Translations under genes and position numbers: made by a program
Shown: positions 5,484-21,774 of the stretch, one piece after another
Layout of the letters: every line of letters starts with the position of its first letter
Position numbering within the stretch: the stretch's first letter is position 1
Notes under the pieces: generated by a model
The model's input: the letters and a program-made list of their open reading frames with translations, nothing else
Told to the model about the DNA's origin: nothing
Databases searched by the model: none
Source of the DNA: Candidatus Thorarchaeota archaeon
GTDB taxonomy: Archaea; Asgardarchaeota; Thorarchaeia; Thorarchaeales; Thorarchaeaceae
DNA length: 22,317 nt
Assembly (NCBI GenBank): GCA_029858305.1
Contig: JAOUFI010000033.1
Coordinates: 1-22,317, forward strand
Direction of reading: 5' to 3'

Positions 5484-5810
5484 GTGAGGAGAAGTAAGTT
5501 GTCATCACGTGATATTGAGATGGAGACGAGTGCTGATATTCTTTCCATCGCATCCAGATACATCATTGTCAGTGTTGTGATAATTGCAATTGGCGCGATT
5601 TCATCAGTCTATGCAATTCTGGATTTTCTCATCTATGGAATGCTTCATGGTGCTTTCCTAGTATTTGGAGGATTTTTCCTAGGTATTGCATTCATGTTGA
5701 TAGGCGCGTTCATTGGAGTCTGGGGTCTCTTTTGGATGCGATCTGAAGGGAAGAGACTTCGAAAGAGGTTTGAAGGTATCGTATCAATTGAAGGGAGTAT
5801 GAGACCATGA
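5484..5810 (+). CDS. Small membrane protein of unknown function, paralog of the next gene
   Basis: Two long hydrophobic segments. It aligns without gaps to 5807..6190 and shares an ATGA overlap with it. The start may be ATG 5520. Confidence 0.75.
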   Translation: MRRSKLSSRDIEMETSADILSIASRYIIVSVVIIAIGAISSVYAILDFLIYGMLHGAFLVFGGFFLGIAFMLIGAFIGVWGLFWMRSEGKRLRKRFEGIVSIEGSMRP

Positions 5811-6190
5811 GACATTCAGAGAAGGATGTAAAGATCACAGAAGCAAGTTCAGTTCCAGAGGAAGTCGCGAAACCAAAACTCAAGCAAGAGAAGGTACAGA
5901 AGATCAAGAAACCAAAGACGGTCACTTGGGAAGGAGTAACACAGAAAGTCTATGATCGTATCGAGTGGTATGCTACTCGCTTTATCATTATATCGACAGT
6001 AGGCGTTGTGATAGGCTTCATTGCTCTCGTCTATGGTGGTATAGCTTTCGTATTCACTGCGGCATCCCTCCAAGACGTCAGCGTCTTTCTTGCTGTGTTT
6101 ATTGGAGTAGGTGCAATTGTTGCATCAATTATACTGCTTGCATGGGGCGTCTTCTGGCGCAAAAAGGTAGAAACTCAGTCTATCTTCTAG
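5807..6190 (+). CDS. Small membrane protein of unknown function with a charged N-terminal extension
   Basis: Lys/Glu-rich N-terminus followed by two hydrophobic segments ending WGVFWRKK. GGGAG lies upstream of the ATG. It is a paralog of the previous gene. Confidence 0.8.
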   Translation: MRHSEKDVKITEASSVPEEVAKPKLKQEKVQKIKKPKTVTWEGVTQKVYDRIEWYATRFIIISTVGVVIGFIALVYGGIAFVFTAASLQDVSVFLAVFIGVGAIVASIILLAWGVFWRKKVETQSIF

Positions 6191-6349
6191 ATCGTTCAAT
6201 CAATTATTCTCATCAAGTAATCCAAGGCTCTATCTCACTGATGAGATAAGACGCCTTGGTTTTCGTTTTTTAGCTGCGTTATTATCTTTGATAAAAGGTA
6301 CATTTAGCGAGTCACTTCATTCTAATCCCATGTTTAGTAGGGTACGCCC

Positions 6350-6577
6350 TTATGCAAGCTCTCTATCTGGATGTATGATATATCTTGATACTCCTCTATC
6401 AGCTAGTTCTTTTTCGATTCGGGCGATGTGGACTGCAATTGCAGCCTGTGAGTTTTTGAGTGACACAAGACTCAATCTGAGATCGCTATCCGAATCTTTA
6501 ACGCCTCTGTGTGGTAATATAACACTAAAATTATGTATCCTGGAATTGTTGCTTTTGTGACTCAATGAATTCACCAT
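6350..6577 (-). CDS. Small helical hypothetical protein (paralog 1)
   Basis: 75 aa. 26/48 ungapped identities to the ORF at 20861..21070, with many synonymous codon differences. Confidence 0.8.
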   Translation of the reverse strand: MVNSLSHKSNNSRIHNFSVILPHRGVKDSDSDLRLSLVSLKNSQAAIAVHIARIEKELADRGVSRYIIHPDRELA

Positions 6578-6600
6578 TTTTAGTTTAGCATGCGTTCTGT

Positions 6601-6619
6601 TTGTAGAGATTTTCTACAA
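6601..6619. promoter_or_regulatory. Palindrome TTGTAGA-N5-TCTACAA, candidate operator
   Basis: Perfect 7-bp inverted repeat between an AT-rich TATA-like tract (6620-6645) and the ATG at 6577. Confidence 0.45.
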
Positions 6620-6877
6620 TTATTATTATACATCAAATATAATTAAAGTCGCGTTAAACAAGATGATGTGGAAAGTTACTGGATGACGATGTGGCTACAT
6701 CTGACTACCGCCATTTGGTTACATACTGTAATAGAAGTATTGTTTTGGAGAAATTATTGATACTTATTCACAAGAAATATTTCATTTTGAATAGCTTGTT
6801 GAATATGCAAAACGGAACGTACTTGATTGCCTTTTGATTCAGCTTAATCAATTTCGAACCATAGCCACTCGACTATA

Positions 6878-7756
6878 TTAGAATTGCGAGAGTGCACCCT
6901 GAGCTCTCACATATCGCTCTGTATATTTGAACAGGAGACTGCCTACAACGATGAACAATATGTCTATTATCAATAATGCAGCTACAGCTTGAATAATTCC
7001 TGGAGCCAAGAATCCATACATCAAGAAAGACCTGAACGCATCTACACTCCAGGTCAAGGGAGATGCTAATGATACGTACTGCAATATTGGCGGAAGAACA
7101 ACGATAGGATAGGATATTGGCGCTATAATGAGGAATACTTCCGATACCACCTCAATGATCATCCAGCCCTGTTTTGCTAGAAGCACTATGCAGGTTAGTG
7201 CAAACACTATTCCTTGCATGCCGATTACTGCAAGTACGACTATTCCTAGTGCTGGAAATACACCCCACAGGTTCAACGTGGCTCCGAAGAAAAGGACTGA
7301 AAAGATGAGCTGGAGAATCACCCCAAGACCACCATGCTGTACGTTATGAAGCATGGTTCCCCAGACTATCGTATCCCTTCTGATTGGTGTGGTCATCAGG
7401 GTTTCAAGAGTACCGACATTTTGTTCCCTTCTGAATGCCATGCCTGTACCCCAGAAGAGGCTCATAGCCAATCCTGAGAATGCGCTGCCTATAGCGATGT
7501 AGGTCACCCAATCAGTGGTGCCTGTATATGTTCCAAATACTGAGGATGTTGGACTACCTGCGACAGCCGTACCTGCGAGAAGCATGGGCAAGAACCATAG
7601 GAAAGGCATTACGATGAAATAGAGGACACTGAGGGGGTAGGAGAATTCTACTCTCCACTGCTTGATTGAGAGAGCGTTGGCAGCTCTGAGTTCAGCGCGT
7701 AGACCACCACGTTTCATCATCTTCTCATGTAGGCTTGAACTCTCTGTCTGTGTCAT
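6878..7756 (-). CDS. ABC-2 type transporter permease
   Basis: About 6 TM segments with REQNVGTLETLMTTP, YPIVVLP and SPLTW motifs. The start abuts the previous stop codon. Confidence 0.92.
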   Translation of the reverse strand: MTQTESSSLHEKMMKRGGLRAELRAANALSIKQWRVEFSYPLSVLYFIVMPFLWFLPMLLAGTAVAGSPTSSVFGTYTGTTDWVTYIAIGSAFSGLAMSLFWGTGMAFRREQNVGTLETLMTTPIRRDTIVWGTMLHNVQHGGLGVILQLIFSVLFFGATLNLWGVFPALGIVVLAVIGMQGIVFALTCIVLLAKQGWMIIEVVSEVFLIIAPISYPIVVLPPILQYVSLASPLTWSVDAFRSFLMYGFLAPGIIQAVAALLIIDILFIVVGSLLFKYTERYVRAQGALSQF

Positions 7757-8665
7757 CTAGAACCCTCCCATGCTACCCCTCTCTTTTGTCCACTTCTCTC
7801 CGTAATTAAAGACTCCAATTCCAACAGCCCAGAAGAATATGAGAATCCCACACATCAGGGCAATAGACTGAAGGAACAGAAATAGGTCATATGTCCCTAT
7901 GATGGCAAGATCTCTTATGACGACTATTGCTATGGTTGAAGGAATCAAGTATGCTGCGAATCTTGCCGGAGCTGGAAGGACCTGTAATGGGTAGGTTATC
8001 GGCGAGACCGTGAACACAGCGTTGTTGATGAGTTCGGTCAGAACACTTGGATCTTTGAATACAAGTATCATACCTGCAAGCATGAACCCGAATCCATAGA
8101 ATGCGATTATCATCAGAAGCATAATCACAATAATCGGTCCAACTGCCACTAGGGTGTAGGACACACCGAAGAGTGCCATAGCGGTGAACAATAGGATGAA
8201 AGCTGATATTGTGGTCTGTACAGTATCTGAGAATGCAGCACCGAGGAGGATGCTAATTCTTGGAACTGGTGTCACAAACAGCGGTTCTAGTGTTCCAGAG
8301 AACTGCTCCCAGCGAAAGTTGTTCCCGATCGACCAGATGCTGGCATCAATATATTTGAAGATGAACCAACCAATCACAGCGAACTGGAGGAAGTCGCTGA
8401 ATCCCGAAACCTCACTGAAATATTCACTTGTGCCTGGCCCTGCAACTGCAGTCATCATCAACAGGTATGGAGCTAACCATAAGATTGGCAAGAGACCCCA
8501 GATGAGTACATTGGTCGGATATCGAATTGCTATCCTGATATTCTTAACTGCGAAAATTCGTGATGCATTCCAGTCCATCATACGTGGCTGGAAATCAGTC
8601 AGATACCCATTTTCCAACTCTTCACGTTCTTCGTCAGCAGATCGAAGACTTTCACGAGTCTGCAT
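7757..8665 (-). CDS. ABC-2 type transporter permease
   Basis: EQFSGTLEPLFVTP and YPLQVLP motifs, multiple TM segments. The ATG at 8665 overlaps the ATPase stop (TGATG). Confidence 0.92.
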   Translation of the reverse strand: MQTRESLRSADEEREELENGYLTDFQPRMMDWNASRIFAVKNIRIAIRYPTNVLIWGLLPILWLAPYLLMMTAVAGPGTSEYFSEVSGFSDFLQFAVIGWFIFKYIDASIWSIGNNFRWEQFSGTLEPLFVTPVPRISILLGAAFSDTVQTTISAFILLFTAMALFGVSYTLVAVGPIIVIMLLMIIAFYGFGFMLAGMILVFKDPSVLTELINNAVFTVSPITYPLQVLPAPARFAAYLIPSTIAIVVIRDLAIIGTYDLFLFLQSIALMCGILIFFWAVGIGVFNYGEKWTKERGSMGGF

Positions 8666-9657
8666 CAATCCTCAATCCTCCGTCCTGTTAGTTTCAGAAA
8701 GACATCATCTAGTGAGGGTTCCTTGATCTCAAAATGCTCAACGCGTGCGCTCTGGTCTTGATGGATAAGATTCAAGACATGATGAGCCAAGTCATATCCA
8801 TCCTTAGCAGTTACCACCAACTCTGAGTATCCATTTCGTGTTGTTGAATTTGCTGACATCACTCCATCGATCTCTCTGATTAACCCAAGGTCTGGGTCAC
8901 CTTTGGTCTTGATATGAATGCTGTCATAATCTCGCACGTCTTCTTTCAATTCTTGTGGAGACCCGAAGCTCTTGATCTCTCCTTCATTAATTAATGCGAT
9001 TTTATCACAGAGCAGGTCTGCCTCATGCATGTAATGTGTTGTGAGCAGTATTGTCTTGCTTTTCAGAGAGTTACGAATGTACTGCCGAAGGTCTGTTGCA
9101 AAGGTTGGATCTAGTCCCTGAGTGGGTTCATCTAGTAGCAAAACTGGGGGATCATGAATCAACGCTCTAGCGAACACGATCTTCATTCGCATTCCGTGAC
9201 TAAGTTCCTCCGTTTTGATGTCCGCTTTCTCAAGAAGTCCCATCTGCCCTAGAAGCTCGTCTGCGCGCTCCTTTGCCTCGTTCTGTGGCATTCGATAGAG
9301 CTTGGCAAAGAAGATGATGTTCTCTCGCGCAGTAAGCTTCCAGTAGATGCTTCGTTCATTTCCTTGACATACGCCCATCGATGCTCTGGCATAAGTGGAT
9401 TCCTTTAGGACGTCATACCCGTGAACTCTAGCAGTTCCAGAGGTTGGGAGAACAAGAGTTGCCAGGCATTTGATCAACGTTGTCTTGCCTGCCCCGTTGG
9501 GGCCCAAAAGGCCATAGATCTGACCTTTCGGTATATCCAGTGTAATCGACTTCAATGCGTCGACTCTTGTTTTCTCAACTGGGATGATGACCGCCTTCTT
9601 TTTTACACTAATGAAGGTCTTTGAAAGGTCTTGTATCTCTACAGCAATTTTGTTCAA
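8665..9657 (-). CDS. ABC transporter ATP-binding protein (DrrA/CcmA-like multidrug type)
   Basis: Walker A GPNGAGKT, signature LSHGM, Walker B LLLDEPT, TTH and a C-terminal EPSLDDVFLKLTG. I prefer TTG 9657 as the start because GGAGGT lies 7 nt upstream; the track start of 9720 is probably too long. Confidence 0.95.
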   Translation of the reverse strand: MNKIAVEIQDLSKTFISVKKKAVIIPVEKTRVDALKSITLDIPKGQIYGLLGPNGAGKTTLIKCLATLVLPTSGTARVHGYDVLKESTYARASMGVCQGNERSIYWKLTARENIIFFAKLYRMPQNEAKERADELLGQMGLLEKADIKTEELSHGMRMKIVFARALIHDPPVLLLDEPTQGLDPTFATDLRQYIRNSLKSKTILLTTHYMHEADLLCDKIALINEGEIKSFGSPQELKEDVRDYDSIHIKTKGDPDLGLIREIDGVMSANSTTRNGYSELVVTAKDGYDLAHHVLNLIHQDQSARVEHFEIKEPSLDDVFLKLTGRRIED

Positions 9658-9659
9658 TA

Positions 9660-9805
9660 TTATTACCTCCCCCAAAAAGAGGGTGAGAATGTTGGTGTTC
9701 GTAAAGCCCAGTATATTCACTCAGGTCTTATCGAACCCGAGTGAGAAAAGTTCGCCTCGGGTTTCAGTCCCGTATAAGTATTGTGAGCATGCGTAAACAC
9801 CTATC
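9660..9805 (-). promoter_or_regulatory. Structured 5' leader of the ABC operon (putative attenuator or translational switch)
   Basis: Overlapping inverted repeats at 9734-9741/9756-9763 and 9717-9726/9735-9744, short uORFs, and a pyrimidine tract complementary to the SD region. Confidence 0.5.
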
Positions 9806-10020
9806 TCTCGGGGATATTGAGTTAGTATATGAATTTTACCACACACATGAAATGGTGTTTCTGTGTTTATTGAATTTGTATGATAGCAGCTATAATGTTA
9901 TTTGTTTATGATTTTGGAGCCCTGTTAATGCATATGCTCAATGCTAATTAAAGGAAAAAAACTCTCCTGAATATCTGCCATTCCGATACTGTCTTAGGGT
10001 GCATTAATTTTCAAGATTTC

Positions 10021-10926
10021 ATGCAAGTAACGCCTGAACTTCTCATTGGAAGCTTGATTGGTCTTCTTGGATCTGCACTCTACGGACTCTCTGTTGTAGT
10101 TTATCGATCCCAGGCTGATGAGATTGGTCCAGTTGCCGTAAGCTCCATCAAGATGTGGGTAGCTCTGCCTTTCATGGCTGTCATGGTTCTTATCCTTCCT
10201 GGTTTCGATTCTATATTTCTTCCACTCTCTGTTATTGCTATTCTAGGTACATCAGTGACACTGGGTGCAGTGGTAGGCGATACCATCTATCTCTGGAGTC
10301 AAGAGCGAATAGGTGTGTCATACGCATTTCCAATCGCAATGTCGTTTCCTATCATGACATATTTCCTGACGGTTGTCTTTCTAAATGAGCCACCTGTACT
10401 CTCAAGACTTGCTGGGGCTGTTGTTGCTGTAGTTGGTGTGATTCTAATTTCGAATGAGCAGAATCGGAATCAGAAAGATACTGACACTCCACGTAGGCTT
10501 GATTTATGGGGAATTGGCGGTGCATTGTTGACAGCAATTCTTTATGCAGTCGGGACGACCATGCTTCAAGTGGGTATTGAAGGAGTTGACCCAATCAGTG
10601 GCAGCTTCGTCCGTGTTCTTTTTGGCAGCATCGCATTCGTTCCTGTATTTGCAGTTGCGCGTTATCAGGGGAAAGCAAGACCGACCAGCCACGCTACTAT
10701 ACGAGTGATAATAGCAGGATTCTTCGGGATGGCAGTGGGTTCTCTTCTTTATGTTGCAGCAGTCGCCTCTATAGGTGCAGCAATCATGTCTGTAATCTCT
10801 GCAACTGCTCCCTTATTCGCGATTCCAGTTTCGATCTTATTCTTGAAAGAGCGATTAACTCCCATTGCTGTAGTAGGAATAATCGCCACATTATCCGGAA
10901 TCGTTCTTGTAGTATTGGGATTCTGA
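10021..10926 (+). CDS. DMT superfamily (EamA) transporter
   Basis: About 10 TM segments in two repeats ending VFLNE and LFLKERLT. Confidence 0.92.
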   Translation: MQVTPELLIGSLIGLLGSALYGLSVVVYRSQADEIGPVAVSSIKMWVALPFMAVMVLILPGFDSIFLPLSVIAILGTSVTLGAVVGDTIYLWSQERIGVSYAFPIAMSFPIMTYFLTVVFLNEPPVLSRLAGAVVAVVGVILISNEQNRNQKDTDTPRRLDLWGIGGALLTAILYAVGTTMLQVGIEGVDPISGSFVRVLFGSIAFVPVFAVARYQGKARPTSHATIRVIIAGFFGMAVGSLLYVAAVASIGAAIMSVISATAPLFAIPVSILFLKERLTPIAVVGIIATLSGIVLVVLGF

Positions 10927-10927
10927 T

Positions 10928-11857
10928 TTACTGTGGAGCTGCAACAAGTCCAACATATGTCTCAAGTACTTCTCGGTTTCGAAAGAATCTGATAAGCAGT
11001 TTCTGACCAACTTTGCCCCGCATCACTTTCTTTCTCAGGTCTTCCATTCCACTTATTTCGTCCTTGTCAATAGCTACTATGACATCTCCGGCCTGCAAAT
11101 GTGCAAGCTGTGAAGGTCCTCTTGGTACCTCGAGTATCAAAGCGCCTCTATCAACAGCAAGACCATAATGTGATGAAATTCCTCTATTCAGCGTTACACC
11201 GACAATTCCCATCCAAGGTGTTCGAACAGTACCAGTTTCGATAAGTTCATCGAAGACACCTTTGAGAGCATCAACTGCAATAGCGAATCCTATCCCTTGG
11301 CTCCAAGGAATCATTGCAGTGGGAACTCCTATGAGTTTTCCTTCTGAATCGACGAGAGCTCCTCCACTATTCCCCGGATTGATTTGGGCTGATGTCTGAA
11401 TGAGTCCTTCTAGAAATGATCTCTCGCTTTGAATAGTTCTATCCACTGCACTTACCATCCCAAATGTCACGGATGAGCCTAGTCCCAGAGGATTACCAAT
11501 TGCAATAGCAAACTGCCCAACTTTCAATTTGCTTGAATTACCCATATCTATTGGAACAAGTCCTGTCGCCTCGATTTTCAGGATTGCAAGGTCTCTTGTC
11601 TTTGACTCTCCAACAACAACCGCTTTGAATGTACGCCCATCATGAAGAGTTACTTCTACATCTCTTGCTCCCTCAACTACATGAGCATTACTCACAATGA
11701 AACCAGTGTCTGAAAGAATCACACCAGAACCCTGACCTTGAACAGGAACGATACTCGAAAGTTGTGTTCTTGCTAGTCTTGTGGTTGAAACACTCACAAC
11801 ACAGGGAATAACTTGCTCAACAACTTCCACCAATTTCTTTTCTAGCTCTTGAAACAT
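10928..11857 (-). CDS. HtrA/DegP-like trypsin serine protease with one PDZ domain
   Basis: GSGVI, NAHVV (His), DLAILK (Asp), INPGNSGG (Ser), and PDZ motifs WMGI and GDVIVAID. The likely start is ATG 11857 (MFQELEKK); the track's N-terminal extension looks like promoter DNA. Confidence 0.93.
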   Translation of the reverse strand: MFQELEKKLVEVVEQVIPCVVSVSTTRLARTQLSSIVPVQGQGSGVILSDTGFIVSNAHVVEGARDVEVTLHDGRTFKAVVVGESKTRDLAILKIEATGLVPIDMGNSSKLKVGQFAIAIGNPLGLGSSVTFGMVSAVDRTIQSERSFLEGLIQTSAQINPGNSGGALVDSEGKLIGVPTAMIPWSQGIGFAIAVDALKGVFDELIETGTVRTPWMGIVGVTLNRGISSHYGLAVDRGALILEVPRGPSQLAHLQAGDVIVAIDKDEISGMEDLRKKVMRGKVGQKLLIRFFRNREVLETYVGLVAAPQ

Positions 11858-11992
11858 GCTATTAACAATATTTAAGAGAATATTAACTTCACGACAGCGG
11901 TAAATATCCATTTTCATGAAATTGCATGTTTTACAGATCAGACAATCCCTAGACCCTTCTTGCTTATATTGCCTGTGTGCCAAGCATAATCA

Positions 11993-12595
11993 GTGGTGTC
12001 AGTGATTGAATGGCTTAACTTTGTTATTTTAATCATATCCTCAATCTTATTCCTTGCTTTCTATATCCGGAGCGTAAGTCCTGCGCAGCTAGAAGGGAAA
12101 ATAGGTGAGATTGCCTTCTCAAAATGCAAGACCTATCGAATAATTGCTGGTGTATTTGAGGGGATTACTGTTGTTAATTATGTAGTTTATTTCTTCTACC
12201 CTCTCCCAATTGGACTCCTGCGGACATTTCCTTGGGAATGGTGGATTTCAGCTGTTATAGCACTCGCCATTTTATTTCCCAGCCTCTATATTATGATTAT
12301 AGGAGTAAAGGATGCAGGTGAGGAGACTCTTGAGCCCAAGAAAGAGCACGGTCTCTACACAGGAATATACGAGAAGGTACGTCATCCCCAAGCGATAGGA
12401 GAATCCGTGTTATGGTTCTCTATTGCACTATTCCTAAACTCCCCTTTTCTTATTCTCTTTTCATTCATCTGGATTCCGATATTCTATGTAATGTGCATTG
12501 CAGAAGAACGAGATTTGATCATCCGATATGGCCAACCCTATCTTGATTATCGTGACCGCGTTGGGTTCTTAATCCCGAAGAAATCAAAGAATTGA
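11993..12595 (+). CDS. Isoprenylcysteine carboxyl methyltransferase / PEMT family membrane protein
   Basis: TGIYEKVRHP, EERDL..YG..Y.DY..RV..LIP, several TM segments. Confidence 0.88.
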   Translation: MVSVIEWLNFVILIISSILFLAFYIRSVSPAQLEGKIGEIAFSKCKTYRIIAGVFEGITVVNYVVYFFYPLPIGLLRTFPWEWWISAVIALAILFPSLYIMIIGVKDAGEETLEPKKEHGLYTGIYEKVRHPQAIGESVLWFSIALFLNSPFLILFSFIWIPIFYVMCIAEERDLIIRYGQPYLDYRDRVGFLIPKKSKN

Positions 12596-12740
12596 ACCTA
12601 TCATCTTAGAGCCTTGATTGGGAGATGGTGAGTTGGTATCTGGATTATCTGGCACCCTTATTGATATTACGGCTTATCTGAAAGATATATTACTATACAG
12701 CAAGCTATTTCATACCGGATGTAGGCTTCAGTTCTGAACA

Positions 12741-13595
12741 ATGATGAGTCAAACCCCATACACAAATCTTGGAAGATATCTTGTTAGCAAGGTTCGTGTC
12801 AGTGATAATTTGAAAAACGCTATCAATCAATCAGTAAACCTAATCGGTGGATTTGAAAAGATTATAGCGCCCAATGACACTGTAACCATCAAGCCAAATC
12901 TGAATACAGCTGACCCCTATCCTGCTTCGAGCGATCCTCAATTTATCAGGGCTCTTGGCGAAATAATTCTTAATGCAGGTGCTGGAAAACTCAAGATTAT
13001 TGATAGTTCCACGATGAGAGTATCAACGAGAAAAGTAGCTAATACAATCGGACTTACATCTGTCGCAGAAGAACTAGATGCTGAATTGATTTTCCTTGAT
13101 GAACACGATTGGGTCAAGGTCGATATTCCAAGGGGAAAATTCATGAAGAAGGCTTCAATTGGAAAACCACTTCTTGAACGCGGAAAGACTGTCCTCGCTC
13201 CCTGTCTCAAGACTCATTTCTTGGCACGATATACAGGTAGTATGAAGTTGTTTGTAGGATGGCTGAAACATTCGGAACGAATTAAATTGCATCTTCAAAA
13301 CCTAGAACCAAAGATAGCCGATTTAGCCTCTTATTTCAATCCAGACTTGATTGTGATGGATGCGAGAACTTGTTTCATTACAGGTGGTCCATCATCCGGA
13401 ATCTGCTCATCTCCCAATATGATACTCGCAAGTGGTGACATGGTTGCAATCGACGTCGAAGGCGTACGAGCAATTCAGTGCTGCAACGCTGATAATAAAT
13501 TGCAAATGGATGTCTGGGAAATCCCACAAATAAAACGCGCAGTTGAAATCGGAATCGGAGCAACATCCGATGCTGATATTGAGGTTATTGAATAG
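12741..13595 (+). CDS. DUF362 family protein (no fused ferredoxin)
   Basis: VTIKPNL, LKTH, TGSMK, PDLIVMDA, GGP and DMVAID motifs. Confidence 0.85.
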   Translation: MMSQTPYTNLGRYLVSKVRVSDNLKNAINQSVNLIGGFEKIIAPNDTVTIKPNLNTADPYPASSDPQFIRALGEIILNAGAGKLKIIDSSTMRVSTRKVANTIGLTSVAEELDAELIFLDEHDWVKVDIPRGKFMKKASIGKPLLERGKTVLAPCLKTHFLARYTGSMKLFVGWLKHSERIKLHLQNLEPKIADLASYFNPDLIVMDARTCFITGGPSSGICSSPNMILASGDMVAIDVEGVRAIQCCNADNKLQMDVWEIPQIKRAVEIGIGATSDADIEVIE

Positions 13596-13661
13596 TAGTA
13601 TTAAAACCCAAGAATCCAGTTGCTGTTGGATATTTTCATTTGTCGAACATTGGAGGTACCT

Positions 13662-15497
13662 TTATGACTCTTGATTTTTGGTTTGATCAATGTATATTGG
13701 TAGCCAAATCTTAACTTCAAGTCCCTGTGAATATTGCCCAGGAACCCGATCATGTAGCTCAATTCGTCCGCCGTATTTCTCAACAAGATGGTTGACTGTG
13801 TGGAGACCTAAACCCCCAAATCTTCGTGACATGTTGAACAGACCTGCTTTTGTTGAATCAGGAATACCGGGACCATCGTCACTGATTGATAGAAGATAAT
13901 CTAATCCTGCTCTCTCGAGACGTATCCAGACCTTTTTCCGCTCTTTGACGTTATGTTCAATTGAATTCATGAGAATGTTCGAGACAAGGAGCTCAAGATA
14001 CTCATCTGCATTAATTCTTGCATCACTCCCCATGATGAAAGTCTCGAATGTGATGTTCTCTGCGTGCGACATAGCCTCTATGCATGTTGTCACGGCTTGC
14101 GTTAGAGACCTCTCTGACAGTGGCACAGATAGGAGTTGTTCAGTTGAGTTTGCCTCTTGGATTATCCTTGAACAGCGTTTGATTGCATCGCATATCACTT
14201 TGTAAAATGAGTTCTTTACACTATCTTCTATTGCATTCATCATGAGTGCTGCACTGTTAAGTATGACCTGTAATTGCTGTGCTAAATCATGACCCATCAG
14301 ATCGAGATACAAAAGTGCTCTGTCCTTAGCCGATCTTAATTCTCTCTCAGATTGTCGTCGACCACTGATGTCGACTGTAACTGTTTGAATGGCTGGGACT
14401 CCGTCATATTCCACTTGACTCGAAAAGCTTTCTACCCACCGAATCTCTCCATTCTTTCTAACATATCTATACTCATATCTCGGCGCGACTGCTCTACCAG
14501 CAATTTTGTCGCGCATTCGTTTTGTTAAATCTTCTCTATCATCCGGATGTACCAAGTCCCACACATCTTCAGCTGTCATTTTAGCAAGTTCATCGTCATC
14601 ATATCCGACAAGATTCTTGAAGGCTGGATTGTAGTAGAGAAAATTCTCCTGTGTCATAATTGTAATTGCTTGAGGAGACTGTTCGGCAAGATTACGATAT
14701 TTCAATTCAGAGGCTCTCAGATTTTCCTCAAATTCTTTCACATCAGTGATATCTATAAAAAGGACCTGAATAGCCGGAGCCCCTTCATATTCGATACTTC
14801 CTGAGAATGCTTGCACCCATCTTGTACTTCCATCTCTACGTATGAAACGATATTCGTAGGGCATTGGGATTGGTTTTCCCGCTTCTCTATCTTCTGCTAT
14901 TTTACGAAGGAATTTCTTATCTTCTGGATATACTAAATCCCACGCCACTTTTGAAGGCATTGCGATTATTTCTTCAGGAGAGTAGCCAACGATTCGACCA
15001 AATGCTGGATTGACATACGCATATTTTTCATTCTGCATAATCGTCAATCCCTGAAGTGATTGCTCTGCAAGTAGTTGGTATTTATTCTCAACCGCCCGAT
15101 GGTCTGAAACATCAGTTATGATTGCGAACGAGCCTCTAAAGTTGCCTTCTTTATCGATAATGGGAACTCCTGATATAAGAGTGGAAATGCTGCGCCCTGA
15201 TTTGGCAACCCATTGTAACTCATATTTTGATGATAGTCCTTGTGCACGCTTAGCAATATGCTCTTTCTGAATTCTGATGTTGGCGTGATCGAGAAAATTA
15301 GATATTGGATAACCAATCATTTCATTGGTTGCATATTCTAGCAGCTCTCCAAATCTTCTATTGACATAGGAAAATTCATTCTTCTCATCCACAACGCCAA
15401 ATCCTTCACTCAGAGATTCCAATAATACTCGATGACTCAGTAACTCTTCGAGAGACTCGAAATCTATACTATCTCTAGTTTTGCTTTCGTTCACCAT
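13662..15497 (-). CDS. Cytoplasmic sensor histidine kinase (3 PAS, HisKA, HATPase)
   Basis: Three PAS/PAC repeats (YVN, YEYR..RxxGxxRWV), H-box HDL, N-box NILMNS, G1 DDGPGI and G2 GLGL. No TM segment. Confidence 0.93.
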   Translation of the reverse strand: MVNESKTRDSIDFESLEELLSHRVLLESLSEGFGVVDEKNEFSYVNRRFGELLEYATNEMIGYPISNFLDHANIRIQKEHIAKRAQGLSSKYELQWVAKSGRSISTLISGVPIIDKEGNFRGSFAIITDVSDHRAVENKYQLLAEQSLQGLTIMQNEKYAYVNPAFGRIVGYSPEEIIAMPSKVAWDLVYPEDKKFLRKIAEDREAGKPIPMPYEYRFIRRDGSTRWVQAFSGSIEYEGAPAIQVLFIDITDVKEFEENLRASELKYRNLAEQSPQAITIMTQENFLYYNPAFKNLVGYDDDELAKMTAEDVWDLVHPDDREDLTKRMRDKIAGRAVAPRYEYRYVRKNGEIRWVESFSSQVEYDGVPAIQTVTVDISGRRQSERELRSAKDRALLYLDLMGHDLAQQLQVILNSAALMMNAIEDSVKNSFYKVICDAIKRCSRIIQEANSTEQLLSVPLSERSLTQAVTTCIEAMSHAENITFETFIMGSDARINADEYLELLVSNILMNSIEHNVKERKKVWIRLERAGLDYLLSISDDGPGIPDSTKAGLFNMSRRFGGLGLHTVNHLVEKYGGRIELHDRVPGQYSQGLEVKIWLPIYIDQTKNQES

Positions 15498-15752
15498 ATC
15501 GAAGCGGCCTCTCGGTGGTTAAGACGAGAAACACTATCCTCAATTCTTTTTCTCCTTATGTGTTGTATATCCATATCAGTTCTTCAGGTGGAGAGAAATT
15601 CAATTATCATTGAAAACAATCAAACAATAAGCAAAACTCCCACAGCTCTCAGAAGAACTCTAGCTGTATATATAAAACAAAGCAAATGAATCAAGATTGA
15701 CAACAGTGCTGACTGTGTCTACACCAGTATATAGGCGATTGTAGAAAAACTA

Positions 15753-16235
15753 CTACTCTGTGATTGCTGTCTGTAATTCATCACTTCGATTTTCTACTGT
15801 TTTTCGTATTTCTTTAAGCAGCTGTCCAAACGAGTTTTTGAAAGATGTATCAAGGTTCTCTATGGCATCGAGATCTCTAATCATGCCATTCAATCTGTCT
15901 TGAATTCCAATGACTCCTAGCTGGAAGATATCTGCAAAGCTTCCATTGATTGTGTATAAGACACGCTTTCGCCCTCGGCCAGTCTGATCGTAGTCTCTTT
16001 GGCCATCAATAACTCCCAGTGCTTCAAGTTGAGATACAATCAATCCCGCATTAGCCCGAGAATAGCCGGTTACGCGGCAAATATCATCTGAACTGAGTTT
16101 TTCTCCTGAATTGTACTGCTCAAGGAAAAATGCTGCAAGAACAGGACCTGCATTTGGTGATAGTCCAATCCACTTGGCAACTTTCTCGAATAGTCTTATC
16201 ATGGGTATCTTGATCAAACCATTGGATTCACCCAT
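15753..16235 (-). CDS. Winged-HTH transcriptional regulator (GbsR/MarR-like)
   Basis: GLSPNAGPVL...LSSDDICRVTGYSRANAG..VSQLEALGVI, wing RGRKRVLY, helical C-terminus. Confidence 0.8.
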   Translation of the reverse strand: MGESNGLIKIPMIRLFEKVAKWIGLSPNAGPVLAAFFLEQYNSGEKLSSDDICRVTGYSRANAGLIVSQLEALGVIDGQRDYDQTGRGRKRVLYTINGSFADIFQLGVIGIQDRLNGMIRDLDAIENLDTSFKNSFGQLLKEIRKTVENRSDELQTAITE

Positions 16236-16321
16236 ATTTCTTCAACATCCTATTTTCTATAGCATGGCGTAACTTAGTAATCCTGCATCCATTTTTTCCA
16301 ATTCCACCTAGCTATATATGA

Positions 16322-17656
16322 TTATTGGGAATCGACCTCACGAGCTAAGATAAAGAATGCATCTCGACCTTCATACTTTCCTTTCCTAATCTTTGCGGTA
16401 GCATTGATTTTTATCTCATTATTGACTGCGATTGAAATATCACTTCTTACAATACTGCCCTCATTTGCGTTTTCAATGTCTGTTTTTATTTTCTCTATAT
16501 CTACCCCTCTGTAGATATCCTGAATTGTCTTTTTCAATAAAACATCCATTGATACATTCAATCGGTCGAGGGTCTTCTTGTTCGCATAGACTATTTTATG
16601 ATCAGAACCGATGATAAGAAAGAGATCATCAGATAATTCTGAAACTAAAGTCAATCCTGCCTTTGAATCGAGGATAGAATTTTCAGCATTGATTCTTGTC
16701 ATATACGCTGCAATCTGGATTGAAATCGCCTCCAGAGTACGTCTATTCCTCTCAGGTATCTCATCGTGCGTGTGTGAAGCCAAGCTAAGAATCGCTACTG
16801 TCCGATCCTCAGATGTAACTGGAAGGAAAGCGACTGCTGTGAGATTCTTGTATTGCTCTTCTATTGTTTTCGAATTTTGAATATCCCTCATCGTTAGGTA
16901 TACAGGTTTATCGATAGATGTTTCACCAGTTTCCTTATAGAAATTATAGAGAAAATGAGATGAAAGACCCTGACTCGAGGAAACATCAAATTTACCAGTT
17001 CGACCATCTATCAAGTATATCCCTCCGCTATCAATTCCTTCTAGTTGCACGACCGTCTTTAGAATACCATCTAGAGCATCGGTAAGATTTGTTGCCTTGC
17101 AGAGAGTGTTGCCAAGTTCTTGCTGTAGTATTAGCGAGTGCTCGACTTTTCGACGTTCGTTAATCTCATGAAGAAGACGTTGGTTCATCTCCTCAAGCTC
17201 TGCTGTGCGTTCTGCCACCCGATTTTCAAGATCCGCATATGCTGCTTCAAGAGCCTCTTCTGACCTTCTCTGCTCTACCTCAGATATAATTCGAACAGCA
17301 ATCTGGCTGAAGAGTTCTCGAACTTCATCGTCTCCTTTCTTAAGATAGTAATCTGCTCCTAGATTGAGTGCGCGTATTGCAACCGCCTCTTGACTCCTAC
17401 CTGTGAGAATGATGAAAGGAATGTGTGGATTTGCCTCACGAACCCATTCAAGAAGATCGAGTCCTGTCCTACTATGAGGTCCGAGATAATGATCGCAAAC
17501 AATTGCGTCAAATTTCTCTTCCTCGAGTTTTTGGAGGGCTTCCTGATCAGTATTTACTCCGATTAATTCGAATCTTTCATCTTCTTTCTCAAGAAACTTA
17601 CTAGCAAGAAATAGGAGGTCCTCATCATCATCTACAACTAGGACCCGTATCTTCAT
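16322..17656 (-). CDS. Response regulator: receiver, coiled coil, GAF and PAS, with no output domain
   Basis: VLVVDDD, phospho-Asp in VCDHY, LTG, YLKK; coiled coil LENRVAERTAEL; GAF AVAFLPV..VAILSL; PAS YANK. Strong SD GAGGTGGAG. Confidence 0.9.
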   Translation of the reverse strand: MKIRVLVVDDDEDLLFLASKFLEKEDERFELIGVNTDQEALQKLEEEKFDAIVCDHYLGPHSRTGLDLLEWVREANPHIPFIILTGRSQEAVAIRALNLGADYYLKKGDDEVRELFSQIAVRIISEVEQRRSEEALEAAYADLENRVAERTAELEEMNQRLLHEINERRKVEHSLILQQELGNTLCKATNLTDALDGILKTVVQLEGIDSGGIYLIDGRTGKFDVSSSQGLSSHFLYNFYKETGETSIDKPVYLTMRDIQNSKTIEEQYKNLTAVAFLPVTSEDRTVAILSLASHTHDEIPERNRRTLEAISIQIAAYMTRINAENSILDSKAGLTLVSELSDDLFLIIGSDHKIVYANKKTLDRLNVSMDVLLKKTIQDIYRGVDIEKIKTDIENANEGSIVRSDISIAVNNEIKINATAKIRKGKYEGRDAFFILAREVDSQ

Positions 17657-17853
17657 TTCCTCTCCACCTCAAGCCTCAATTGAGTTATTTCAATCTCTGC
17701 GATATAAGTTGTAAGATATTATTATTCTCATAAATACCTTCTAAGACACTCAAGAGTGTAGGAAGTTCATACTTCCCTAAAAAATGCAACCATTTGCTTA
17801 CGATTGGTCGGAGTGCAATGCCTGCATACACACATACTTTAAAACATTGAAGT

Positions 17854-17869
17854 GATAACGATAGTTATC
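17854..17869. promoter_or_regulatory. Palindrome GATAAC-N4-GTTATC, candidate operator of the SRPBCC gene
   Basis: Perfect 6-bp inverted repeat about 10 nt downstream of TATA-like TTTAAAA (17838-17844). Confidence 0.4.
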
Positions 17870-17925
17870 TACCATCACAAAGATAAGGGTAGAGTGATAA
17901 GTGAAATCCCAATAAGGTGGAGGTC

Positions 17926-18828
17926 ATGGCGGAACCAAAGGAAGATGTACTTCCAGTGATTCACCTGCAGATTCGCATCTCAAAGCCTCTAGATGAGGTT
18001 TGGGCTGATTTTCTAGACCCAATCATGATGCTACTTTGGTTGGGTAATGAGATTAGTGCTGATGTTCGTGTTGGAGGTGCAATCAGATTCCTTGGACCCA
18101 ACGCTCCTACAACTCCCGAGATAGCTAATCAATGGGAGATTAAGGAAATTAAACAAAAGAAGGTCTTGCTTTTGAGTTGGAGGATTATGGGAGTTGATAC
18201 CCTTCTCGTAATCCGATTCAATCCCATCGGTCCTGGGACTATGATACAGGTTAACCATGGAGCTGTTCCTGTGTCAGCGAGAGCATATCACCTTCCAGAG
18301 CACTGGAATCTATTGCTAGCCAATTTCAAGAGTGCAGTCGAATTAGGTACTCCGGCTTTGAGATTTGTCTATACCGACTATCATCCACTTCGTATTACAC
18401 GTTATGACCCAATAGATGTGCGCCTTAGCGTAATCTGCAAGACTCCTCCCTCATTGCCATTTGATGTTTGGACCAATCCTGAAAAGCTGAAGCATTTCAT
18501 ACGCGCTGAAGAACCAAAGGTTGATCGACAATACGCTGGAATCTACACTTGGTGGGCAGAAGGTAAAGGACCTGTTGTCTTTAAGAAAATGATTCCTGAC
18601 AAAGAATTAGAATTCTCTTGGGTACATGGTGATGAGCCTGAAACCATTGTGAATGTTCGCTTTGAGGAAGTGAATGAACACACTTTGGTCACGCTTCATC
18701 ATCACAGTTTCAAATCCCCTGCTGCAACTATAGGCTATGATATTGGGTGGTCTGGAATACTAGCTGAACTCAAACTTGTTTGCGAACTGGGTGAATCCGG
18801 CATTGAACGCATTAGTGATTGGGGCTAG
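17926..18828 (+). CDS. Tandem SRPBCC/AHSA1-like (START/Bet v1 fold) protein
   Basis: Two repeats: P..VW..F.DP....W...DVRVGG...W..LL, and P..VWTNPE.L...LEFSW...T.VTL.H...GW..L..LK. AGGTGGAGG lies upstream of ATG 17926. Confidence 0.85.
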   Translation: MAEPKEDVLPVIHLQIRISKPLDEVWADFLDPIMMLLWLGNEISADVRVGGAIRFLGPNAPTTPEIANQWEIKEIKQKKVLLLSWRIMGVDTLLVIRFNPIGPGTMIQVNHGAVPVSARAYHLPEHWNLLLANFKSAVELGTPALRFVYTDYHPLRITRYDPIDVRLSVICKTPPSLPFDVWTNPEKLKHFIRAEEPKVDRQYAGIYTWWAEGKGPVVFKKMIPDKELEFSWVHGDEPETIVNVRFEEVNEHTLVTLHHHSFKSPAATIGYDIGWSGILAELKLVCELGESGIERISDWG

Positions 18829-18843
18829 ATTGTACAACATTTT

Positions 18844-19584
18844 CTACATGGGGAAAAGAATAATTCCTGGAAAGATGAACCACCACATGGCTACAGCTGT
18901 CACCATTGGAATGAAGAAATTATCTGTCCATCCAATACTTAACACCTCAGCAGTCGTTGCAAATGCAGCAACAATGAAAATTTGAGGTAAAATTCTAAGA
19001 ATACTTGTATCCGGAGAATAGACTAGTAACGAAGCAAAGATTGCTAGAACCGTGAAGACGAATACCGCAATACTTCCTTCCAATGACTTATTCCTATATT
19101 TTCGTTTGATAATTTTTCCTCCATATGGTCTCCCAATTATCTCACCAGCTGCATCGCCCCATGCAACAGCAAGTATGGCGGCAACGAAGATTTCGGGTCT
19201 CGAAAAGAAGAGGAGGAAAACAGTACCGAACGATATCATTCCCATAAATCCCGCCATGAATGTTTTAGTTCGGGTGTCTTCATCTCGACTACCTGCGAGA
19301 AGCAGATCCCAAATCAACTCGCTTTTATGAGCCCAAGAATAGAAGAGGATGAAAACAAATATTCCTGCAGCGAAAGCTGGACCACTCAGATTTGAATATC
19401 CAACAAGTGTGAGACCAACTACGCTTCCCATGGAAGTATGGACTAGTTTTCTTGCCTTCCATTTTGGCCTTCCTGAGCATGCTAAGTAGTATGCAGATGT
19501 CAGCACCACTGAAACAATCATTCCAGTTGCCACTGCCATCCCCACATCTACAAGGGTCAAAGACCCTATGGACAAATCGACCAT
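18844..19584 (-). CDS. CTP-dependent polyprenol/dolichol/phytol kinase family membrane protein
   Basis: RKLVH, WGDAAGEIIGRPYG, KSLEGS and DNFFIP motifs. Confidence 0.88.
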   Translation of the reverse strand: MVDLSIGSLTLVDVGMAVATGMIVSVVLTSAYYLACSGRPKWKARKLVHTSMGSVVGLTLVGYSNLSGPAFAAGIFVFILFYSWAHKSELIWDLLLAGSRDEDTRTKTFMAGFMGMISFGTVFLLFFSRPEIFVAAILAVAWGDAAGEIIGRPYGGKIIKRKYRNKSLEGSIAVFVFTVLAIFASLLVYSPDTSILRILPQIFIVAAFATTAEVLSIGWTDNFFIPMVTAVAMWWFIFPGIILFPM

Positions 19585-19675
19585 CTTTGGCAGCTCCGAA
19601 GGTTACGAATGACTATTTCATTATTATTGTTCTATGCTAGGATCTCTTCTTTTGGTTATCTCAATTATATATGCT

Positions 19676-20518
19676 CTACTTCTGACAACGAGGGCAGAAA
19701 TAGACCTGACCTCCACCATGGGTTATCATCTCGATTCTCGCCCCACATTCAGGACAGTCCTTTTCTTTCATATTAGAACCCATTACAGGAGTGTATCGTC
19801 CTTGTTCTCCAAAAAGGTTCTTCCAACTATCTTTTCCCCCTGAGCAGATACGTGCATTTAGAATCTGCTTCATTGCATCGTACAAATCATGTTTCTCATC
19901 ATCATCTAAGGATGATGTGTTTCTCTTTGGATGAATTCTTGCTTTATAGATTATCTCTTGAAATGCAGCATTACTCAAACCAACTACTATTGCTGTCCTA
20001 CCAACAATAGCAGCTTTGATATTCTGTTTCTTTGCATCCAATAGCTCGCAAAATCTTTCGAATGTAAACTCATGCTCTCCAACTGGTGAGGGTGTATCTG
20101 AAAAATCTCGCTTTATGACATAGAGGTCTTTGACCCCGCTATCGGAAGCTGCAAGGATGCATCCCATACCTGTCTGTCTAATAGTAAAGAAAGTATCATC
20201 ACTGAATTCAATCTTTAGGTGATGCTTCTTAGGTAGAGAATCTCTGTCTTTATGATAAAGAATTTCAGCTCCATAGTCTGGACACAAAACAAGATTCATC
20301 TTCTTGTTCATCTTGATATGAATCACATTGCCTCTGTAATTGATTGATTTGATAGTACAGCCAACTAACCTATCATAATCATCACGGTTCTTATTGATGA
20401 ATCCGACTCTCTGAAGTTTCTCGAAATCTTGAAGGTCGTATGATTTGATTTTCTTGTCGAGGAGAATTTGAGTCATTTGTTCAGCAAGAATCTGAATTTC
20501 TGGAAGCTCAACACTCAC
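19676..20518 (-). CDS. Fpg/Nei (MutM-like) DNA glycosylase family protein with a divergent active site
   Basis: N-terminal ELPE, H2TH-like GLSNA..EI.YKARIHP, C-terminal zinc finger CPECG...FCPRCQ. Start is GTG 20518 (MSVELPE) or TTG 20527. Confidence 0.88.
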   Translation of the reverse strand: MSVELPEIQILAEQMTQILLDKKIKSYDLQDFEKLQRVGFINKNRDDYDRLVGCTIKSINYRGNVIHIKMNKKMNLVLCPDYGAEILYHKDRDSLPKKHHLKIEFSDDTFFTIRQTGMGCILAASDSGVKDLYVIKRDFSDTPSPVGEHEFTFERFCELLDAKKQNIKAAIVGRTAIVVGLSNAAFQEIIYKARIHPKRNTSSLDDDEKHDLYDAMKQILNARICSGGKDSWKNLFGEQGRYTPVMGSNMKEKDCPECGARIEMITHGGGQVYFCPRCQK

Positions 20519-20860
20519 TGGATTCAACTTCCCAAACGCGATGTTTTCTGATATTAGATATGATTTATACGTTTTACCTCAAGTAGAATCCTCGTATTCT
20601 CAAACTGTCAGGGAGACGCTCTCATCTTTTATATATCAATTCCAGTCTACATATAGTACAACTATAGATACTGAATATCTCCTGATACAATAAGATCTGA
20701 AAAAACATGTGTAGCACACTCAACACCACATTAAAGTCAATGCAGGTTAGCCAGAATTGTTAATATTCAATAGAGCTGTTCGCGCCTTCAAAGCAGCGTG
20801 ATAGACAGAATCTGTGTGCTCTCATCCTGCATTGCTATTATTCTCATCAAGTTCACTCAT

Positions 20861-21070
20861 TCAATCCTGTATTGGACTGCTCAGGATTCTAGGATCAGTC
20901 CCCCTTTCTTCTAGCTCCTTTTCGATTCTTGAAATATGTACCGAGCTAGCAACGACTGCATTCTTCAGAGTCACCAGCATTAGCTTAAGCTCGCTATCTG
21001 AGTGAGTTCTGATTTTCCTTGGTAGTAAGACATTGAGTGCGTGCTTGCGTCCGCTAATTGTCTCAGTCAT
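20861..21070 (-). CDS. Small helical hypothetical protein (paralog 2)
   Basis: 69 aa from ATG 21070, preceded by a very strong SD (GGAGGAGGTGGTGA). Paralog of 6350..6577. Confidence 0.82.
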   Translation of the reverse strand: MTETISGRKHALNVLLPRKIRTHSDSELKLMLVTLKNAVVASSVHISRIEKELEERGTDPRILSSPIQD

Positions 21071-21215
21071 CTTCTTCACCACCTCCTCCCATTTGATTGT
21101 GATGCTTGGAAAAATCCTGAAAAGAAACGACATGTTTGCTGGGTATTGCTTTCTGTAAGTTTGAAAATTTAGCGCATTCTCTGCTCCATGCTTCGTATGG
21201 GATTTTCCTTTTCAT
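21063..21215 (-). CDS. Putative 50-aa small protein, not in the ORF track
   Basis: MKRKIPYEAWSRECAKFSNLQKAIPSKHVVSFQDFSKHHNQMGGGGEEDD. SD GGGGTGAT lies 5 nt before the ATG. The stop overlaps the next start (ATGACTGA). Confidence 0.5.
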   Translation of the reverse strand: MKRKIPYEAWSRECAKFSNLQKAIPSKHVVSFQDFSKHHNQMGGGGEEDD

Positions 21216-21348
21216 TTGACATCACCCCTGTTGATATTCTCAACCTTTAAGATCCGAATCATTGACTGGTTTCGGATTTTCTATCTTGAGTCTGTGAAGC
21301 TTGGACTATCCCTGCGTTGCATGCTGTTGTTTTTTATCGAATGCGTAA

Positions 21349-21459
21349 GTGTATTCATGTGTGCGATTTCATTGAAGATTCAATGTTCAAGTAAATATAG
21401 TACACCAAAAGTAATAATCTTAGTCAATTTTCAATCAAGCACAAGTTGTGTATTCATGT
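21349..21459. repeat. 12-bp direct repeat GTGTATTCATGT, two copies
   Basis: Exact copies at 21349-21360 and 21448-21459 in a long AT-rich intergenic region. Confidence 0.6.
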
Positions 21460-21774
21460 TTCTATCGAAACATCAATCGAAGAAATTTGCACGCTTTCGT
21501 TCATATTTTGTAGTTTCATAAAAACCTACTTTATTCAATGCTAGTTGTCCACTTTTTGTTTGGTGAACAGACTATCGCAAGTTATCAATTGATGATGGAG
21601 ATGAAACATCATTCTATTCATCTATGTCATATATCGACATGTAACGAAATCACAACGACCCAATTCGTGCCAATCATTATCACAAAGATGCACAGTTTTT
21701 GCAATCGACCATGGTTATGGAGTGGCATTCTTTAGCTCATCATCGTTAAATGTAATTTTGCTAAAATAGAAATT

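Follow-up and report, generated by a model that had tools for sequence, protein, structure and literature searches.

The 22,317-nucleotide (nt) stretch of DNA analysed here in full (the window; positions 1 to 22,317 of contig JAOUFI010000033.1 from the Candidatus Thorarchaeota archaeon assembly GCA_029858305.1) carries two short genes, P0001 and P0002, that belong to a family of small proteins not previously described and restricted to a single GTDB family of Thorarchaeota-like Asgard archaea. Both open reading frames (ORFs) lie on the minus strand, exactly where an earlier interpretation made from the letters without database searches (the sequence-only reading) had placed them:

6350-6577, minus strand: A-type family gene P0001, 75 amino acids (aa), start ATG at 6577, defined by the ORF call and its translation
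20861-21070, minus strand: B-type family gene P0002, 69 aa, start ATG at 21070, stop TGA at 20861-20863

The gap-free identity of 26 out of 48 residues that had been reported for the two quoted stretches was reproduced, as was the claim that conservation acts at the protein level, given that 19 of the 26 identical residues use different codons and that nucleotide identity is 83/144. BLASTP of the two proteins gives 28/58 identities and 40/58 positives without gaps (E 7e-17 for this single comparison). Neither protein contains a cysteine or matches Fer4, and the start of P0002, preceded by GGGAGGAGGTGGTG, coincides with the methionine start of five homologs (P0003, P0004, P0006, P0007 and P0008). 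A count of copies, which had been proposed as a check, finds P0001 and P0002 as the only two members in the window's assembly (3.04 Mb, 205 contigs, 88.9% complete) and one to four copies in each positive genome among the relatives.

P0001 and P0002 are real genes under purifying selection. Nei–Gojobori estimates on codon alignments give, for P0001 and its closest available ortholog (L032), a dN of 0.060, a dS of 0.90 and an omega (that is, dN/dS) of 0.066, from 23 synonymous and 9 non-synonymous differences, and for P0002 and L006 a dN of 0.258, a dS of 1.9 (near saturation) and an omega of 0.135; all listed pairs with dS of 0.2–2 fall at omega 0.066–0.44, and the sole higher value, 0.89, comes from a near-identical pair with four differences altogether. 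Between P0001 and a related strain sampled in DNA run X2 there are 14 differences (8 synonymous and 6 non-synonymous when each is taken singly), with 5 synonymous versus 1 non-synonymous in core residues 12–62. The non-coding insertions and deletions (indels) of this strain lie at 6265, in the homopolymer just before ATG 6577, at 6697, at 6708 and within 20630-20731, none of them inside the coding sequence of P0001, and its coding indels consist of one compensating, frame-preserving pair at 21131/21134 inside an upstream ORF that precedes P0002 (see below). The sequence-only reading, which had called the genes real and had named dN/dS as a check, is thus borne out by values well below 1 and by coding frames that the X2 indels leave intact. 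The alternative that these are chance ORFs or decaying pseudogenes could draw on the shortness of both ORFs, on a C-terminal tail that P0002 has lost at its TGA and on an A-type remnant with an internal TGA in a related genome, but it is effectively refuted by the omega values, which stay low across clades, and is further opposed by 37 database representatives that keep the invariant residues and by X2 indels that fall outside coding regions save for the single pair in the upstream ORF. The A-type remnant itself (L026, at G005:C51) is a degenerate copy, a 45-aa fragment, which shows that the family does lose copies on occasion.

The sequence-only reading had recognised no annotated family, and this held in every collection that was searched. 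P0001, P0002 and the upstream ORF gave nothing above noise against Pfam, PHROGs and PADLOC, nor did P0001 and P0002 against NCBIfam; across all 40 aligned members, Pfam at E values up to 10 returned no recurrent family, with weak matches to RecX_HTH2 in 4/40 and to Leu_zip in 2/40. A profile search of PDB sequences reached a best E of 0.53, for eL18, a sole match that we treat as chance, and the best ESM Atlas match (0.82, to phage hypothetical clusters) lies within the range reached by shuffled proteins. The listings and abstracts returned by full-text literature searches do not describe the family. When a 19-member profile was run against 1.84 billion cluster representatives, 37 proteins matched at E ≤ 1e-3, 28 of them at E ≤ 1e-10, and their source labels read ‘hypothetical protein’ and Thorarchaeota-like metagenome-assembled genomes; among the 37 is a protein of 3,199 aa that was matched in seven short segments, probably through a coiled-coil artefact. 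A 40-member profile found matches in 34 of 400 genomes of the phylum, the window's own included. Within the window's GTDB family 33 of 85 genomes are positive (genus g1, 13/27; g25, 13/17; g22, 5/7; g16, 1/1; g19, 1/3) versus 0 of 314 in the rest of the phylum, counts that are lower bounds because many of the assemblies are incomplete and no more than 13 candidates were scored per genome. Both window proteins score 100–107 bits against the A2 profile and carry the core pattern of the family. What had been suggested to be a lineage-expanded family is therefore a lineage-restricted one with several paralogs in separate clades.

The core of the family comprises about 50 residues (P0001 numbering throughout), in which Pro22, Leu33 and Asn42 are invariant among the 40 aligned members and Leu40, Glu55, Glu57, Leu58 and Arg61 nearly so. 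A basic N-terminal strand (R-x-H-x-F-x-V-x-L-P) is followed by an acidic, Ser/Thr/Asp-rich loop of 8–10 residues and then by a heptad helix of 32 residues (D-L-[RK]-L-x-L-V-[ST]-L-K-N...V-H-I-x-R-I-E-x-E-L-x-x-R-G), whose hydrophobic positions 33, 37, 40, 44, 47, 51, 54 and 58, as read from the alignment, keep a 4-3 heptad spacing. The AlphaFold2 (AF2) model of the P0001 monomer shows a single helix at residues 30–61, with predicted local distance difference test (pLDDT) values of 90–94 for that block, and a disordered N terminus. Two copies of P0001 modelled together from their own 40-row alignment gave a homodimer score of 0.46 (runs 0.46, 0.49 and 0.44) against 0.00 for the best control, with contact agreement between runs of at least 92% and a partner pLDDT of at least 65; the mark of 0.46 is reached by 20 out of 30 proteins solved as same-chain pairs and by 1 out of 23 solved as single chains, benchmark counts that hold only roughly here because an own alignment was used. 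P0001 therefore probably forms a symmetric dimer, as predicted by these models. The modelled inter-chain contacts (51:40, 54:33/37, 58:33, 47:47 and 44:44) place the helices antiparallel to each other, and residues 12–23 of the two chains touch (including 16:16), which we infer to represent a two-stranded antiparallel ribbon of the N-terminal segments. Homodimer modelling, another check that had been put forward, was accordingly passed, and the zipper-like helix of the sequence-only reading stands as a heptad helix predicted to pair, although in an antiparallel arrangement and not as a classical parallel zipper. In the same way, the family is like basic leucine zipper (bZIP) proteins in that a basic segment at the N terminus precedes about four Leu/Ile/Val heptads, and differs from them in that the predicted pairing is antiparallel and that the invariant Pro22 and the acidic loop split the basic segment from the helix; neither the modelled contacts nor this interruption fits a bZIP or parallel zipper, and Leu_zip matches were weak and restricted to the two members mentioned above.

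A maximum-likelihood tree of 95 core sequences leaves many forks without resolution because it rests on 85 columns, and it nevertheless places P0001 in an A-type clade (23 rows, support 100/97) and P0002 in a separate B-type clade (starred). As the window genes fall into separate supported clades, they are old paralogs and not the outcome of a recent duplication. The A-type and C-type clades, which carry the palindrome described below, group together (support 82/81), and further clades comprise B2, C, full fusions and a diverged ‘D’ form.

In relatives, the same domain is fused to or adjoins ferredoxin-type proteins, a point that goes beyond the sequence-only reading, as do the upstream ORF and the loss of the P0002 tail. 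In P0044, P0058, P0059 and L041–L044, the family domain (91–103 bits) forms the N terminus of a protein of ~240 aa, the rest of which consists of a 2x[4Fe-4S] ferredoxin domain with eight invariant cysteines (C107, C110, C113, C117, C136, C139, C142 and C146) and a helical C-terminal region; the AF2 model of P0044 (34 sequences) has a mean pLDDT of 46.7, too poor for a fold search. At L008–L011, a small B2 gene is followed directly by a separate gene for a 114–189-aa Fer4 protein of the fused partner's family; a D-type fusion comes directly after the B-type gene at L006, L007 and L045, and the SMTZ1-45 record likewise has a B-type gene and a D-type fusion on adjacent locus tags; in genus g25, a C-type gene is followed by one for a 327-aa RDH/QueG-like Fer4 protein. 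The partner is itself a Thorarchaeota-restricted 2x[4Fe-4S] family with a conserved helical C-terminal domain, 164–189 aa long when split and 234–242 aa when fused. A ~350-aa double winged-helix protein is a conserved neighbour in seven loci of two genera (the B2 modules L008, L010, L012 and L049 and the fused genes L041–L043), including L012, at which a neighbouring Fer4 gene was not observed, and the window's genome holds an ortholog of this protein (C205, 55% identity) that neither a family gene nor a Fer4 gene adjoins.

These arrangements can be taken to mean that the module is a protein–protein adaptor, that is, a docking or dimerisation module of the Fe–S protein, with stand-alone paralogs such as P0001 and P0002 that pair with one another or with the fused forms, act as a subunit, chaperone or dominant-negative form and make no contact with DNA. 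This view, which is near to what the sequence-only reading proposed, is the main rival of the DNA-binding one set out below; we regard it as possible and entertain it tentatively. Fusion to or adjacency with Fer4 proteins recurs across four clades, namely the fused, D and B2 forms and, in one genus, the C-type loci; a role of this kind also agrees with the heptad helix and with the homodimer model that passed its controls; no DNA-binding family is detectable in the proteins; and genomes with fused forms also hold small C-type copies (G374, G377 and probably G376, in which the second match is untyped). The situation is reminiscent of microProteins and other dominant-negative dimerisation partners (Id/HLH and LITTLE ZIPPER; a concept that features in PMC3020774), given that stand-alone small copies of a dimerisation module are also found inside larger proteins of the same lineage, but here the larger partner is missing from the window's genome. 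In that genome (88.9% complete) we found no ortholog of the Fer4 partner, with generic Fer4-domain matches only (query residues 96–161), so that, unless this partner is encoded in the unassembled 11%, P0001 and P0002 function in its absence. Moreover, none of the eight A-type loci examined has an adjoining Fer4 gene, and an adaptor would leave the conserved palindromes upstream of the family genes unexplained.

The residues that vary between the clades and the genes around P0002 bear on another reading, a coiled-coil protein with a non-regulatory (structural, metal-binding or DNA-repair accessory) role, for example a metal-handling dimer. The C clade (for example, L019, L050–L052 and P0037) has four conserved cysteines at P0001 positions 19, 20, 28 and 50, a hint of metal or cluster binding by these members; B-type members have histidine at 28 and 50, fused forms His28 and Tyr50, and A-type members Asp/Ala28 and His50. 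P0002 is flanked by a gene for an Fpg/Nei-type glycosylase (19676-20527, minus strand) and by an AlkD-like ‘DNA_alkylation’ gene (21775-22317, plus strand), and C-type genes adjoin AlkZ-like glycosylase genes in 3 of 12 loci. Both sets of observations would suit a metal-handling or repair-associated protein, which we nevertheless consider unlikely: P0001 and P0002 have no cysteine, the His/Cys pattern changes from clade to clade, and the DNA-repair neighbours are not kept in other B-type loci, such that their presence beside family genes may be coincidental.

P0001 is a monocistronic gene, convergent with its neighbours, behind a spacer of 300 nt (6578-6877), and the non-coding regions before the two genes contain the following elements:

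6719-6731, no strand assigned: exact palindrome TTACA-N3-TGTAA (TTACATACTGTAA), 142 nt upstream of ATG 6577, a candidate operator or regulatory site
6618-6660, minus strand: core-promoter-like block TGTTTAACGCGACTTTAATTATATTTGATGTATAATAATAATT, near-identical between the window and L032 despite a dS of 0.9 for the adjacent gene
6601-6619, minus strand: perfect palindrome TTGTAGA-N5-TCTACAA, after the block at 6618-6660, as read from the sequence
21371-21384, minus strand: palindrome ATTGAATCTTCAAT, in the non-coding region beyond the upstream ORF

TTACA-N3-TGTAA occurs once in the window, even with one mismatch allowed, and in the comparison with L032 this palindrome and 6618-6660, which may be a promoter with a TATA box and B recognition element, are conserved islands in an otherwise diverged spacer. 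Across 190,012 nt of non-redundant loci, the motif has 27 sites at no more than one mismatch, five of them exact, and all five exact sites and 19 of the 27 lie 39–218 nt upstream of A- or C-type genes, with distances that cluster at ~150–180 and ~80–105 nt. Seven of the eight A-type and seven of the 12 C-type loci carry it (one mismatch at most, within 260 nt upstream), against a background in the intergenic DNA of the window's genome of 21 sites in 472,948 nt (~1.1% per 260 nt), and an unbiased enumeration of 5-mer palindromes with spacers of 0–10 nt ranked it top, in 5 of 41 upstream regions. The motif is common to two paralogous clades and at least three genera, and three loci (L034, L035 and L013) have two sites each, 21 nt apart. 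For the B clade, TTGAA-N2-TTCAA (one mismatch at most) is found 308–342 nt before the start of the domain in the window, L006/L040, L007 and L045, and also in L017. A generic scan of both spacers for inverted repeats returned weak pairs only. The sequence-only reading had placed each gene downstream of a palindrome-containing intergenic region, which is only partly correct, as it holds for P0001 and its 300-nt spacer but in the case of P0002 a 50-codon ORF lies between the gene and the non-coding region; regulation, which it had also claimed, is plausible from the conserved promoter blocks and palindromes upstream.

Given these observations, we suggest, with a probability of roughly 0.4, that the family is a DNA-binding module that acts as a dimer, is probably autoregulated and doubles in relatives as head or partner of ferredoxin-type Fe–S sensor proteins. 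The 32-residue heptad helices would pack antiparallel in a symmetric homodimer, as in the model, and the basic N-terminal strands would pair into a two-stranded ribbon across the helices; such a ribbon-plus-zipper dimer could then recognise short palindromes in its own promoter regions, namely TTACA-N3-TGTAA where A- and C-type proteins are concerned and a different one, TTGAA-N2-TTCAA, in the case of B-type proteins. The stand-alone proteins would thereby be small autoregulated transcription regulators, and in relatives the module, as the head of or the gene before a 2x[4Fe-4S] protein, would couple redox sensing to gene control. With the conserved palindromes and the modelled dimer of ribbon and helix taken together, a regulator that binds DNA is no less likely than the adaptor, inhibitor or dimerisation roles that the sequence-only reading had offered as examples, and the palindromes together with the absence of the Fer4 partner from the window's genome favour DNA binding over an adaptor. 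The two are not mutually exclusive.

Several points weigh against DNA binding. No likeness to a DNA-binding family was detected by sequence or profile (Pfam with 40 members, hhalign with RHH_1, and PDB), the model has a single long helix without the helix-turn-helix (HTH) pair of ribbon–helix–helix (RHH) proteins, an acidic Ser/Asp loop follows the putative ribbon, and the dimer itself is a prediction. The TTACA motif is found at none of 14 B and B2 loci and none of seven fused loci; genome-wide there are three exact sites, all intergenic, versus a Markov chance expectation of 3.0, and binomial figures overstate its significance because orthologous promoters share descent. In the window, the palindrome lies ~85–90 nt upstream of the TATA-like block and not over it, and another factor, for example the double winged-helix protein, could bind there. 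The lack of likeness to DNA-binding families and the position of the palindrome well upstream of the TATA-like block favour an adaptor. As three exact sites are at the level of chance and the other two stand at unrelated genes, a regulon cannot be inferred; these two sites (G000 C148:22944 and C148:39127) lie one between divergent genes for CxxCH-containing proteins and the other between flavoprotein-like and MutS-like genes.

In RHH proteins (MetJ/Arc/CopG), which along with NikR-like fusions are the family's closest counterparts in function, a turn with the consensus G-x-S/T/N joins two helices. The present family resembles them in its small size, in an N-terminal strand that ends in hydrophobic-x-L-P, in a predicted dimer with an antiparallel ribbon of two N-terminal strands and in promoter regions of its own that contain short palindromic or paired sites, and differs in having one continuous 32-residue helix instead of two helices with a turn, and an acidic loop of 8–10 residues between strand and helix. 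Comparison of the A2 profile with 27 RHH_1 domains from related genomes by hhalign gave a probability of 0.6%, with six columns (V-x-L-P) aligned, and none of the 40 members matched an RHH family of Pfam at E values up to 10. The RHH topology (strand, helix A, turn, helix B) is likewise not what AF2 predicts, as helix 30–61 runs through the would-be turn at a pLDDT above 90. Small RHH regulators of archaea include aCcr1 (PMC9976878) and CdrS (PMC7439475). The small size, the predicted ribbon-forming N terminus, the acidic tail of B-type relatives and palindromes suggestive of autoregulation would also suit the antitoxin-like half of a toxin–antitoxin pair, an idea that we hold to be highly improbable: no toxin-like gene neighbours either window locus, the co-operonic toxin gene expected for a type II antitoxin was not found in the window, PADLOC gave no match, and the A-type gene has the monocistronic, convergent arrangement described above.

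A bolder form of the DNA-binding reading, to which we give distinctly less credence, is that the one-helix ‘ribbon-zipper’ is a new minimal DNA-binding fold, RHH-like in function, unrelated to RHH in sequence and invented within a single Asgard lineage, that serves as an autoregulated repressor or activator alone and as the head of a [4Fe-4S] redox-sensing transcription factor; the paralogs would then be a small lineage-specific regulatory network, possibly with heterodimers. In one-component regulators of the NikR type, an RHH head at the N terminus binds DNA and is fused to a sensor domain at the C terminus. The fused relatives are similar in that a small dimerising N-terminal head precedes a cofactor-binding domain, and different in that the sensor would be a 2x[4Fe-4S] plus an uncharacterised helical domain and that the head is not RHH by sequence. 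In known Fe–S regulators (FNR, IscR, NsrR, SoxR and WhiB), one cluster sits inside or beside a recognised HTH or Wbl fold. These regulators share with the proposed scheme the idea of an Fe–S cluster coupled to a DNA-binding module, whereas the fused relatives contain a canonical eight-cysteine dicluster ferredoxin and the window proteins are free of cysteine; the CxxCxxCxxxCP motifs of 4Fe-4S dicluster proteins occur only in the fused or neighbouring proteins of relatives, so P0001 and P0002 are not themselves members of that class.

Regulation has hardly been explored in Asgard archaea, where most lineage-specific small proteins are without an assigned function. The family is a compact case, combining a core of ~50 residues, a dimer prediction, a 13-bp candidate DNA site and natural fusions to ferredoxin-type domains. 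If it binds DNA, it would represent an unusual architecture for a redox-sensing regulator; if it is an adaptor, it would be an archaeal instance in which a larger Fe–S protein is modulated by small stand-alone copies of a dimerisation module. Either outcome would give a name to at least 37 clusters that are now ‘hypothetical’.

The B-type locus has an organisation of its own, with the following further features:

21063-21215, minus strand: conserved upstream ORF (MKRKIPYEAWSRECAKFSN...), 50 codons, its TGA overlapping the ATG of P0002 (ATGACTGA)
21216-21300, minus strand: conserved 5′ leader of the unit formed by the upstream ORF and P0002, with the hairpin ATCCGAA-N12-TTCGGAT
21411-21431, minus strand: promoter-like block AAAATTGACTAAGATTATTAC followed by a TATA-like stretch, conserved in relatives
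20822-20860, minus strand: remnant of an acidic C-terminal tail, 12 in-frame codons and a stop, severed by the TGA at 20861-20863

The upstream ORF has its own ribosome-binding motif of the Shine–Dalgarno (SD) kind (GGGGTGAT), and its first 19 codons are kept in L007, L017 and L045 with mainly synonymous changes (by hand count, 4 synonymous and 0 non-synonymous versus L017, and 7 and 2 versus L007). In L007, L017, L045, P0023 and P0025 the ORF and the B-type domain form one continuous frame that encodes proteins of 130–139 aa (P0023, 130 aa; P0025, 137 aa). In the window, the frames of the upstream ORF and P0002 are offset by one base, as they are in P0005, and this offset is not a slip of assembly because contigs from X2 and X6 have no indel at the junction. 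In the leader, an outer pairing of CTTCAC (CATCAC in three relatives) with GTGATG would cover the SD-like GGTGATG of the upstream ORF and could thereby sequester its ribosome-binding site; 20 pairs are predicted and none covaries, which makes the RNA structure a lead only, and an Rfam search of the window matched no family. A plus-strand ORF at 21216-21521 is probably spurious because relatives carry indels of 1–3 nt across the region.

At the other end of P0002, 7 out of 10 homologs run past the position of its TGA to ...GDAE, and the aligned residue is cysteine in the closest homolog (P0003, 91% identical) and proline or serine in the others. The window's frame continues after the TGA as MSELDENNSNAG and then reaches the same relative stop, which suggests that the tail was probably lost by a recent nonsense truncation. 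Read-through or selenocysteine at this TGA is unlikely, the latter because cysteine is the aligned residue in one homolog only; none of the 22 translated long ORFs of the window (21 closed and one open-ended) needs TGA as a residue, and selenocysteine machinery was not searched for.

Beside P0001, two adjacent small plus-strand ORFs, 5484-5810 (108 aa) and 5807-6190 (127 aa), are weakly paralogous to one another (identity 31% across 65 aa, E 3e-6), with faint matches to membrane-protein domains of unknown function, and they stand where four relatives have a conserved 280-aa unknown protein beside their A-type genes.

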